A stretch of DNA of 64,000 nt from Escherichia coli. GTDB taxonomy: Bacteria > Pseudomonadota > Gammaproteobacteria > Enterobacterales > Enterobacteriaceae. Positions 3,277 through 7,466 of the stretch are shown piece by piece. The notes beneath the pieces were generated by a model that had not been told where the DNA came from, did no database searches, and worked only from the letters and a program-made list of their open reading frames with translations. Location: NCBI RefSeq assembly GCF_003790525.1, contig NZ_CP033635.1. One strand, given 5' to 3'. The position numbers were made by a program, and so were the translations under genes. Within the stretch, counting starts at the first letter, position 1; every line of letters begins with the position of its first letter.

Positions 3277-3897
3277 ATGACCTTAGAATGGTGGTTTGCC
3301 TACCTGCTGACATCGATCATTTTAAGCCTGTCGCCAGGCTCTGGCGCAATCAACACCATGACCACCTCGCTCAACCACGGTTATCGCGGCGCGGTGGCGT
3401 CTATTGCTGGGCTTCAGACCGGACTGGCGATTCATATTGTGCTGGTTGGCGTGGGGTTGGGGACGCTATTTTCCCGCTCAGTGATTGCGTTTGAAGTGTT
3501 GAAGTGGGCAGGCGCAGCTTACTTGATTTGGCTGGGAATACAGCAATGGCGCGCCGCTGGTGCAATTGACCTTAAATCGCCAGCCTCTACTCAATCGCGC
3601 CGACATTTGTTCCAGCGCGCAGTTTTTGTGAATCTTACCAATCCCAAAAGTATTGTGTTTCTGGCGGCGCTATTTCCGCAATTCATCATGCCGCAGCAGC
3701 CACAACTGATGCAGTATATCGTGCTCGGCGTCACCACTATTGTGGTCGATATTATTGTGATGATCGGTTACGCCACCCTTGCTCAACGGATTGCTCTATG
3801 GATTAAAGGACCAAAGCAGATGAAGGCGCTGAATAAGATTTTCGGCTCGTTGTTTATGCTGGTGGGAGCGCTGTTAGCATCGGCGAGGCATGCGTGA
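3277..3897 (+). CDS. rhtB: LysE/RhtB-family homoserine/homoserine-lactone exporter
   Basis: 206-aa membrane protein [27 protein letters not shown]; divergent from pldB. Confidence 0.9.
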
Positions 3898-3905
3898 AAA
3901 ATAAT

Positions 3906-3935
3906 GTCGGATGCGGCGTAAACGCCTTATCCGAC
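3906..3935. repeat. REP (repetitive extragenic palindrome) between the convergent rhtB and rhtC
   Basis: Palindromic tcggatgcggcgtaaacgccttatccga read directly in the intergenic spacer. Confidence 0.6.
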
Positions 3936-3958
3936 TTACTCTGATGACGCGTCTGGCA

Positions 3959-4579
3959 TCAACGCGAAATAATCAAATGAATGCCAAATCCGGCAAATAA
4001 CGCCCCGGCAAAACCATCAATCCACTTCGCCAGACGTTGATAACCACGGCGCATTTGCGGCAGGGCAAACAGGCTGGCAACGACGGTAAACCACGCCAGT
4101 GTTTCGATAATAATCAACGCGAAAATGCCCCAGCGCTCAGTGGTGCCGACGTTATCGCCGACAAACAGCGAGAATACCGAACCAAAGTAGATAATCGCTT
4201 TCGGATTGGCGAGATTGGTCAGTAAGCCTTTCAGGAAACTGCGCCCGCTTTTTGCCAGCTCAACCTGTGGTGCAGGCGCAGAAACCGCCTCTTTTTTCAG
4301 TGCACCGCGTAGCATCTGGTAACCCATCCAGCAGAGATACAGGCCACCGCCCACCATAATCAGCGTATGCAGCCAGGCCATTTTTTCGATAATCAAATGT
4401 AGGCCAAGCAACGCAATCCCAGCCCAAACCATTACGCCGCAGGTAATGCCCAGCACGCCCATCATCGCTTCTTTACGGGAACGACTGACAGCGGTCTGAG
4501 AGACAAAAAAGAAATCGGGACCGGGGCTCATAAGCGCCACAATGTGCACCATGGCGACGGTGAGGAATAACATCAACAT
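3959..4579 (-). CDS. rhtC: LysE/RhtB-family threonine exporter
   Basis: 206-aa membrane protein MLMLFLTVAMVHIVALMSPGPDFFF; paralogous to rhtB. Confidence 0.9.
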   Translation of the reverse strand: MLMLFLTVAMVHIVALMSPGPDFFFVSQTAVSRSRKEAMMGVLGITCGVMVWAGIALLGLHLIIEKMAWLHTLIMVGGGLYLCWMGYQMLRGALKKEAVSAPAPQVELAKSGRSFLKGLLTNLANPKAIIYFGSVFSLFVGDNVGTTERWGIFALIIIETLAWFTVVASLFALPQMRRGYQRLAKWIDGFAGALFAGFGIHLIISR

Positions 4580-4642: not shown

Positions 4643-6478
4643 CTACTCTTCGTCGTCACCATCGACATGCGCGCGGATAAGCGCCATAAACGGTTTACCA
4701 AAGCGTTCCAGCTTGCGCATCCCAACGCCGTTAACGCTGAGCATTTCGCTGGCGGTGATCGGCATCTGTTCAGCCATCTCAATCAAGGTTGCGTCGTTAA
4801 ACACCACGTACGGCGGGACATTGCTTTCATCGGCAATCGATTTACGCAGTTTGCGTAATTTGGCGAACAGTTTGCGATCATAGTTGCCGCCGAAGGATTT
4901 CTGCATCGCTTTCGGTTTGAGCGCCACGATACGCGGCACGGCAAGTTGCAAAGAGGATTCGCCGCGCAGCACCGGACGCGCAGCCTCTGTCAGTTGTAGG
5001 GCAGAATGCTGGGCAATATTTTGCGTCACCAGGCCGAGGTGAATCAGCTGGCGGATCACGCTCACCCAATGTTCATGGCTTTTATCACGGCCCATGCCAT
5101 AGACTTTCAGTTTGTCATGACCATAGTCGCGGATACGCTGATTATTAGCACCGCGAATAACTTCCACCACATAGCCCATCCCAAACCGCTGATTCACACG
5201 ACCAATGGTGGAAAGGGCAATCTGAGCATCGGTTGAACCATCGTATTGTTTCGGCGGATCGAGGCAGATATCGCAGTTCCCGCACGGCTCCTGCCGCCCT
5301 TCGCCAAAGTAGTTCAGCAGCACCAGACGACGGCAAGTTTGCGCTTCGGCAAACGCGCCCATCGCATTGAGTTTATGGCGCTCGATATCCTGCAATTGCC
5401 CCTGCGGCTTCTCTTCCAGACAACGGCGTAGCCACGCCATATCGGCCGGATCGTAAAACAGCATCGCTTCCGCGGGCAGGCCATCACGCCCGGCGCGACC
5501 GGTTTCCTGATAATAGGATTCGATATTGCGCGGAATATCAAAGTGGACCACGAAGCGGACGTTAGGCTTGTTGATGCCCATGCCAAACGCCACGGTCGCC
5601 ACCACAATTTGCAGGTCATCGCGCTGAAATTTTTCCTGCACGTCGGCGCGGACATTATTTTCCAGCCCGGCATGATAGGCCGCCGCGCTAATACCCTTGC
5701 TTTGCAGGCGCGCAGCGGTGTCTTCTACTTTCGCCCGGCTGTTGCAGTAGATAATGCCGGACTTACCGCGCTGTTCCTGCACGTAGCGCATCAACTGATC
5801 GAGCGGTTTGAACTTCTCCATCAGCATGTAGCGAATATTCGGACGATCAAAACTGCTGATTTGAATCAGCGGATCGTTCAGCCCCAGCAGGCGCACGATA
5901 TCCTGGCGCGTGGTGTCATCGGCTGTGGCAGTCAGCGCCATAAACGGCAGCGTCGGAAAACGCTGACGCAGCTGACCGAGGGCAGCGTATTCCGGGCGGA
6001 AATCGTGACCCCATTGGGAGATACAGTGCGCTTCATCAACGGCTAATAACACCGGATTCCAGTGCGCCAGATGCTCAAGAAAGTTATCCAGCATCAGGCG
6101 TTCCGGCGCGATATAAAGCAGGCGGATTTGCCCGGTGCGACAGCCTGTCATCACTTCAAGTTGCTGCTCGCGGGTTTGCGTCGAGTTAAGGCACACCGCC
6201 GCCACGCCGTTGGCTTGCAGTTGATCCACCTGATCTTTCATCAACGAAATCAGCGGTGAAACAACCACGGTAAGGCCGTTTAGCAATAAGGCAGGGATTT
6301 GATAGCAAAGGGATTTTCCGCCACCAGTGGGCATGACAACGAGGCAATCGCGGCCGGAAAGCACAGTGTCGATAATTTCTTCCTGGCCGGGGCGAAACTG
6401 TTGGTAGCCAAAGGTTTCTTGTAAAACCTGTTTAGCCCCGGACTCCAGATTCAACACTTCCGCCTGCGCCACATTCAC
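4643..6478 (-). CDS. recQ: ATP-dependent DNA helicase RecQ
   Basis: 611-aa ORF with DEAH box ([15 protein letters not shown]), Zn-binding cysteines and an HRDC-type C-terminus; the true start may be the GTG two codons in (6472). Confidence 0.93.
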
Positions 6479-6490
6479 CCCGATTGCCTG

Positions 6491-6520
6491 AAATAAAAAC
6501 AGGCGCTATTTTCAGCGCCT
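6491..6520 (-). terminator. Rho-independent terminator downstream of pldA
   Basis: On the minus strand: hairpin aggcgct-gaaaat-agcgcct followed by GTTTTTATTT. Confidence 0.55.
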
Positions 6521-6596
6521 GCGCGAGAAACTGCAATGCTTTTAGTCTCTGAGAGGGTAATCCTGGATGCTGGATTCCAGATTTGCCAACCATTCA

Positions 6597-7466
6597 TCAA
6601 AACAGGTCGTTTAGCATAACTCCCACACCAACGCGGGTCTGGTTGAAGTTATAGTCGATGAGCGATTCGCCATAGCCGCTGTAAACCTGAGTATAAAGGC
6701 GCACATGTTTGGTGATCGGGTAACTTAAGCCTAACTCCGCGCCGCCGTAGCCCGTGTTCCAGTTGTACTGTCCTTTCGCACTCAACACCGCATCACCGAG
6801 GTGATAGCCGATTTTAAGCTGGTAGTAACCCATATATTTGGTGATATCCGGGTTATCGTCAGTATTACCCACCACATACCACGGCTTCACCTCTACCAGC
6901 CAGTTACCGTTTTCTGCCATCAGGCGTGTATAAAGGCGGTTCCAGCTGCGGGAGGTCGGGTCTGAACGCCCGTTAGAGTCGTGGTTATAACCCATCTCCA
7001 CATCGCGCAGCGTCCAACCTGCAAAACGGTAATCGGTGGCAAAACCGAGGAACAATTGCGGTTCGTAGTTGGTTTCACGAAACGGTGAAGACTCTTCGCT
7101 ATTGGACAGTTGCCACCAGGATTTTTGCGTGTAAGACGCACCCAATACCGAGTTCGGGCCTAAAATCCCACGCCACAGCGGAAATGCCAGGCTCAACTGA
7201 AACTTTACTTCATCCTTACGCGCATTTTCCGCCCAGTCGTAACTGGCAATCGCTTCTTTATTCAGATCGCTGGTTTGGGTGTAGATGATGTAGTTGGTGT
7301 CATAAGGATAAAGGGTGAACGGATTGTCATGCTCCTGCAGCATATTGGCGATAATACTGCCACGCACCGCTGGCGCGTCATGCACCTCTTTCACCGTTGC
7401 CTCTTGTGCATATACTGCCATAGGCAACATAAACACCGGCAACAACCAGCCCTGCAGAGTCCGCAT
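6597..7466 (-). CDS. pldA: Outer membrane phospholipase A
   Basis: 289-aa ORF with signal peptide MRTLQGWLLPVFMLPMAVYA and a beta-barrel ending in F. Confidence 0.92.
   Translation of the reverse strand: MRTLQGWLLPVFMLPMAVYAQEATVKEVHDAPAVRGSIIANMLQEHDNPFTLYPYDTNYIIYTQTSDLNKEAIASYDWAENARKDEVKFQLSLAFPLWRGILGPNSVLGASYTQKSWWQLSNSEESSPFRETNYEPQLFLGFATDYRFAGWTLRDVEMGYNHDSNGRSDPTSRSWNRLYTRLMAENGNWLVEVKPWYVVGNTDDNPDITKYMGYYQLKIGYHLGDAVLSAKGQYNWNTGYGGAELGLSYPITKHVRLYTQVYSGYGESLIDYNFNQTRVGVGVMLNDLF

Follow-up and report, generated by a model that had tools for sequence, protein, structure and literature searches.

The hairpin between pldA and recQ of Escherichia coli has the form of an intrinsic (Rho-independent) terminator of pldA, for which we infer efficient termination, and its loop and descending arm probably also form a weak sigma-70 promoter of recQ, TTGCAG-17-GAAAAT. 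It is most likely part of an ordinary compact gene junction and not a regulatory switch. A sequence-only reading of this DNA had offered two explanations for a terminator so close to recQ, namely attenuation-like control by read-through or a promoter overlapping the terminator. The second is favoured by the comparative data, in which the pattern TTGnnn-17-GAAAAT recurs at fixed spacing, the transcription start being a prediction from that pattern.

Gene order and the pldA terminator hairpin

The window, a stretch of 64,000 nucleotides of E. coli contig NZ_CP033635.1, matches E. coli SMS-3-5 at 100% identity over positions 6300..6800, and the pldA-recQ stretch was found in 5,425 of 5,426 complete E. 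coli genomes. On the minus strand, pldA (6597..7466) is followed by a spacer, recQ (4643..6472) and then rhtC. According to the ORF list and the RefSeq annotation of SMS-3-5, whose record is 100% identical, pldA encodes the outer-membrane phospholipase A of 289 aa and ends with a TGA stop codon at 6599..6597. recQ encodes a helicase of 609 aa, and its start is the GTG at 6472..6470, which is annotated in RefSeq and which all 78 species compared have in the alignment. The start had earlier been placed at 6478, with a spacer of 118 bp and the T-run about 13 nt from recQ, and these three values have to be corrected. The GTG at 6478..6476 is the start of the longest ORF only; it overlaps the GGGG Shine-Dalgarno sequence (6478..6481, minus strand; other genera have a conserved GGGG or GGAG, 5-8 nt upstream of the GTG), and most other genera have GTT or GTC in its place. 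A start at 6472 makes the spacer 124 bp long (6473..6596) and leaves 18 nt between the T-run and the start codon, and 27 nt between the stem and that codon.

The K-12 coordinates of the pldA end and the recQ start are 4005731 and 4005864, and a window position w was converted to the K-12 position 4005864 + (6472 - w). The K-12 spacer is identical to that of the window apart from 8 extra bases (CGGTTGAG) directly after the pldA stop. On the minus strand, the 3′ end of the spacer reads ...AAAAGCA TTGCAG TTTCTCGCG CAGGCGCT GAAAAT AGCGCCTG TTTTTATTT CAGGCAATC GGGG TGAAT GTG.

Terminator scanning, RNA folding and conservation all point to the minus-strand hairpin CAGGCGCT-GAAAAT-AGCGCCTG at 6500..6521, located 75 nt downstream of the pldA stop. 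Stem-loop (6521..6500) and T-run (6499..6491) are found where the earlier reading had put them, and the exact 22-mer of the stem-loop is present in 67 of 78 species. The stem has 8 perfect pairs, six of them G-C, formed by CAGGCGCT (6521..6514) with AGCGCCTG (6507..6500), and the loop is GAAAAT (6513..6508); two G-U closing pairs can extend the stem to 10 bp, and the loop is accordingly of 6 or 4 nt. The T-run TTTTTATTT (6491..6499) lies directly 3′ of the stem with 8 U in 9 nt, and it is T-rich in 69 of 71 species, with 19 sequence variants. The hairpin RNA folds with a dG of -16.6 kcal/mol (z = -2.55), and 3 of 200 shuffled sequences folded equally well. A d'Aubenton-Carafa-type terminator score was +27. 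Together, the GC-rich stem of 8-10 bp with a short loop, the immediate U-tract and the position shortly past the stop codon make the element like other E. coli intrinsic terminators. No T-run follows the stem on the opposite strand; therefore the terminator is one-directional and serves pldA.

The scan found the hairpin to be the sole terminator-like site within 6300..6800; however, shuffled sequences gave 0.5 sites on average, so the terminator pattern alone is not beyond chance. It is the conservation in 67 of 78 species, together with the metagenome matches to the exact 22-mer, all 120 of which lie at the pldA-recQ junction, that identifies the hairpin as a selected element. The 22-mer occurs once in the window, and a dispersed repeat or REP-type element was ruled out, the 22-mer being unique to this junction.

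Conservation of the hairpin and the candidate recQ promoter

The comparison used one genome per species with PldA, giving 80 Enterobacteriaceae loci, in 78 of which recQ follows pldA on the same strand. The spacers of these 78 loci are 30 to about 130 nt long, with five longer ones resulting from insertions. The hairpin is kept in 71 of the 78 species, and 67 have the exact 22-mer including the loop. The four variant hairpins carry single changes only: in two an A-to-G gives a U-G pair, in the third an A-to-G affects pair 2, and in the fourth a G-to-A causes a mismatch. As the stem is the same in 67 of 71 species, it offers no variation in which compensatory changes could be seen. The loop GAAAAT is invariant among all 71 hairpin-bearing species, and a TTG is found exactly 9 nt before the hairpin in every one of them, as part of the hexamer TTGCAG (48 species), TTGAAG (15), TTGCAC (6) or TTGAAC (2). 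The 9 nt between hexamer and stem show 29 sequence variants at constant length. Information content reaches 2.0 bits over the TTG and nearly the entire hairpin, compared with about 0.5-1 bit in the variable spacer and 0.1-0.8 bits further upstream.

Two calibrations were available for this level of conservation. Of 53 four-fold degenerate sites in nearby codons, only 2 do not vary, and the major allele has a mean frequency of 0.65; in the rhtC/rhtB spacer of these loci, a hairpin shows no conservation whatever, its place being taken by unrelated hairpins or none according to genus. Since degenerate sites vary and the rhtC/rhtB hairpin turns over, the 22-mer must be under selection at the sequence level beyond the requirement for pairing. 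A terminator needs pairing and a U-run; the loop is normally unconstrained and compensatory changes are tolerated. The pldA hairpin differs from E. coli intrinsic terminators in this respect, as it is frozen across genera, loop included, without compensatory changes.

In Escherichia, the hairpin of the rhtC/rhtB spacer, which is convergent (window 3898..3958), is REP-like (GTCGGATAAGGCG...CGCCGCATCCGAC); the other genera (spacer compared over L002-L082) have hairpins unrelated to it, or almost no room between the two genes.

The fixed elements upstream of recQ can be arranged as a sigma-70 promoter on the minus strand. The candidate -35 hexamer TTGCAG (6531..6536) matches TTGACA at 3 of 6 positions, with TTG invariant and at a fixed distance in 71 of 71 species. 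It is followed by a 17-nt spacer (6514..6530), composed of 9 variable nt and then the 8 nt of the 5′ hairpin arm. The candidate -10, GAAAAT, is the hairpin loop (6513..6508), with positions A2, A4, A5 and T6 invariant, and in the promoter model the 3′ arm (6507..6500) provides a GC-rich discriminator and start region. A TTG at fixed distance, a spacer of free sequence and constant length, an invariant GAAAAT and the GC-rich bases after it are the reasons for reading the site as a sigma-70 promoter; TTG, the key positions of the -10 and the spacing are fixed while the spacer sequence is free, as is expected of conserved promoters of this class. By consensus the match is weak, 7 of 12 positions (3/6 plus 4/6), and a promoter scan with a threshold of 9/12 does not call it. 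It scores 6.5 with a simple PWM, and equally good sites occur by chance about twice per kb of strand. A mirror promoter on the plus strand, TTGCCT-17-TATTTT (6482..6510), which would be antisense into pldA with its -10 in the same loop, was rejected, its -35 being unconserved outside Escherichia.

From the usual distance of 7-8 nt from the -10, and the preference for a pyrimidine at -1 and a purine at +1, the recQ start is predicted at about G6500 (range 6499..6502; K-12 4005836). On this model, only the final bases of the 3′ arm would be part of the recQ mRNA, whose leader of about 28 nt would run through the U-run and GGGG to the GTG, and the full hairpin would never be included. The T-run would double as the U-tract of the terminator and as the first transcribed bases of recQ. 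RNA coming from pldA would be ended intrinsically by the GC-rich hairpin and U-run, which would insulate recQ from pldA transcription; a recQ leader without the 5′ arm, by contrast, could not form the terminator, and so no read-through would be needed. A weak promoter combined with a GTG start would keep RecQ scarce. Invariance of the 5′ arm is not explained by promoter function on its own; the promoter would constrain the loop and 3′ arm, and pairing with the 3′ arm would in turn constrain the 5′ arm, so that both arms would be frozen because of the double duty of the element.

In the main text of a SELEX study of the sigma-70 (RpoD) holoenzyme (PMC3946193), no peak is listed at the pldA-recQ junction, and the parts searched of published start-site tables and Term-seq supplements have no entry for a start site or 3′ end of recQ or pldA. 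A literature search found no paper treating recQ, pldA and the terminator together, nor one relevant to the recQ promoter.

Some features of the palindrome could instead indicate recognition by a factor besides RNA polymerase, at a site made up of the palindrome and an upstream AAAC(A/G)TTGCAGTTT block. Such a factor could be a DNA-binding regulator of recQ; or else the 3′ end of pldA could bind a protein as RNA or function as a small RNA. A perfect 8-N6-8 palindrome without compensatory changes in 67 of 71 species is more operator-like than terminator-like, and the conserved block begins about 22 nt before the hairpin. Yet the exact 22-mer is found only at the pldA-recQ junction, no Rfam family matches it, there is no canonical LexA box, and the positions that do vary (positions 4-6 of the hexamer, position 3 of the -10 and the spacer sequence) fit the rules of -35 and -10 elements. 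To our knowledge there is no candidate for the factor, and we consider this explanation clearly improbable.

SOS (LexA) regulation of recQ was reportedly proposed by Irino, Nakayama and Nakayama in 1986 (Mol Gen Genet 205:298). No LexA box of the form CTG-N10-CAG is present in 6440..6640, so SOS regulation of recQ has no sequence support at the pldA-recQ junction. The nearest LexA-like match, CTG-N9-CAG at 6488..6502, is not conserved in Salmonella, Citrobacter and Enterobacter.

Natural variants, possible read-through from pldA and rearranged junctions

A different explanation is that recQ has no promoter of its own and is transcribed from pldA through a leaky terminator, with a fixed read-through setting a low RecQ:PldA ratio. 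The same logic of partial read-through applies to the dnaG terminator in rpsU-dnaG-rpoD and to the rplL-rpoB attenuator. In favour of this, all Enterobacterales genomes examined, apart from a few rearranged ones, have the two genes side by side in one orientation, and the match of the candidate recQ promoter is weak. Moreover, Buttiauxella agrestis and Buttiauxella noackiae, Pseudescherichia vulneris, Serratia and Pantoea have spacers of 25-40 nt with neither the hairpin nor such a promoter; recQ must therefore be transcribed from upstream, together with pldA, in these lineages, and consequently some contribution of read-through is possible in E. coli too. However, a leaky terminator leaves the invariant loop and the TTG at fixed spacing unexplained, and 8 perfect pairs (6 G-C) followed by 8 U in 9 nt look efficient.

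Natural variants bear further on this choice, since the -10 and its downstream bases are retained in lineages where the stem or T-run has been lost. Sodalis keeps TTGCGG-17-GAAAAT, but its T-run is gone and its stem is down to about 5 pairs. Hafnia keeps TAAAATAGCGCC, with a better -10 and ACGACA 17 nt upstream, while the partner of the 3′ arm is another 5′ arm, which is displaced and separated from it by a loop of 14 nt. In the locus L049, a 1.6-kb Hcp/Tlde1 island has entered precisely where the loop begins on its 5′ side, removing the 5′ arm, and (T)AAAATAGCGCCTGTTTTT is still in front of recQ. The sole change in Jejubacter is at the third and least important position of the -10 (GACAAT). 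Positions A2, A4, A5 and T6 of the -10 are kept in all four. These variants separate the function of the promoter from that of the terminator, and at the level of sequence they support the reading of the site as a promoter. Leaky read-through from pldA is the main rival to the overlapping promoter; we regard it as rather unlikely.

Where pldA lies apart from recQ (L030, L073, L076 and L079), pldA is followed by a different terminator and has not retained the 22-mer. In Superficieibacter L073 and L076 (about 3838..4040, downstream of pldA), and also in L209, pldA is without recQ next to it and the hairpin is AACGCCATCC...GGATGGCGTT.

Several species have insertions at the pldA/recQ junction. 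The island in L049 (3871..5462) consists of Hcp, a Tlde1-like effector and a 143-aa ORF. In L030 (3871..4730) and L079 (3871..4534), a DUF3828 lipoprotein gene on the opposite strand replaces the hairpin, and in L040 (3871..4291) TTGCAG is preceded by repeat-like sequence of about 350 bp.

Holoenzyme SELEX has also placed peaks of other sigma factors near the locus in K-12, one for RpoF (sigma-28) inside pldA, between yigI and recQ (U00096.2, about 4003446), and one for RpoH (sigma-32) in the divergent yigI/pldA spacer (about 4002730) (PMC5493296). A promoter internal to pldA could feed transcription towards recQ.

The upstream spacer and the question of attenuation

Regulated attenuation would require a recQ leader starting upstream of the hairpin, with a signal deciding between termination and read-through. 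Two features of the E. coli spacer could be taken in its favour. Firstly, a promoter-like TTGGCA-18-CAGGAT is present upstream of the hairpin (6589..6560, PWM 6.75). Secondly, in the fold of a long transcript, ACCCUC (about 6555..6561) pairs with the GGGGU of the recQ ribosome-binding site (6477..6481, minus strand).

The candidate promoter, however, sits in a part of the spacer that is found in Escherichia only and is absent in all other genera. This part (6542..6592, minus strand) derives from a WapI-like immunity gene, of which it is a 3′-terminal remnant, and translates as WLANLESSIQDYPLRD followed by a stop. In E. albertii (L005, 2731..3330), an intact 160-aa ORF ending in ...NILAKLESYIQHYPARR and a stop is located between pldA and recQ, and it matches Pfam WapI (PF24716) with an E value of 5e-20. 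TTGGCA-18-CAGGAT, the sole upstream match in the spacer, was rejected as a recQ promoter on account of its place in this remnant. Sequestration of the Shine-Dalgarno sequence by ACCCUC was likewise rejected, as the 141-nt fold is no better than that of shuffled sequences (z = -1.2) and the pairing partner is Escherichia-specific, being absent in other genera. A 53-codon ORF at 6432..6593, considered as a leader, is frame-shifted in K-12 by the 8-bp indel.

The remaining evidence is also against an attenuator. The terminator persists in both the minimum-energy and the centroid folds, with no competing antiterminator that would exclude it. No more than 3-4 nt lie between the pldA stop and the conserved TTG in 23 species, so that a leader would have no room there. 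An Rfam search of the sequence returned no family match, its two chance-level matches both lying elsewhere on the other strand. Thus the spacer has neither a conserved upstream promoter dedicated to a leader nor a conserved leader peptide ORF, and no ligand-binding or protein-binding RNA was recognised. Attenuation-like control of recQ by read-through, as put forward in the sequence-only reading, is not borne out, and we hold it to be scarcely credible.

Relation to known systems and meaning

An upstream terminator sharing DNA with the promoter of the next gene is a familiar arrangement of gene packing, and the putative recQ promoter resembles other weak sigma-70 promoters that overlap an upstream terminator: it has a TTG-type -35, an nAnAAT-type -10, a spacing of 17 bp and GC-rich bases (AGCGCC) between -10 and start, in DNA shared with the terminator. 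It is unlike them in that the candidate -10 coincides precisely with the terminator loop, and transcription is predicted to start at the final base of the stem. Another comparison is offered by the terminator T1 before dnaG in rpsU-dnaG-rpoD and the attenuator in the uvrD leader, partial terminators which lower the expression of genes of DNA metabolism and depend on read-through. As in these cases, a terminator stands directly before a low-abundance gene of DNA metabolism with a poor GTG start; whereas they need read-through from upstream, the -35/-10 geometry at recQ suggests a start within the terminator.

If the 22-mer is indeed dual-coded, pldA termination might even be mechanically coupled to recQ initiation, although we consider this very improbable. 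Two routes can be envisaged. RNA polymerase released at the pldA terminator would stay on the DNA and re-initiate at the recQ promoter; recycling of polymerase on DNA after termination has been described (PMC7957599). Alternatively, a start at G followed by five U would give UTP-sensitive reiterative transcription of recQ, and, if this were true, RecQ levels would be tied to pyrimidine supply. It may be added that recQ mutants resist thymineless death.

We take the pldA terminator and a putative recQ promoter to have been described when the region was sequenced in the 1980s, and presumably both are in E. coli databases. The pldA-recQ junction is an ordinary one, in the sequence record since that time, and is of little import for E. 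coli biology at large. Its practical meaning is that the hairpin should not be interpreted as a recQ attenuator, and that in the engineering of pldA or recQ by deletions, tags or reporter fusions, positions 6491..6536 of the window should be left untouched, because the pldA stop signal and the recQ promoter are probably both there. For the family as a whole, the invariance of the terminator, loop included, illustrates overlapping constraints, and looking for such invariance is a simple way to find composite sites in other genomes.
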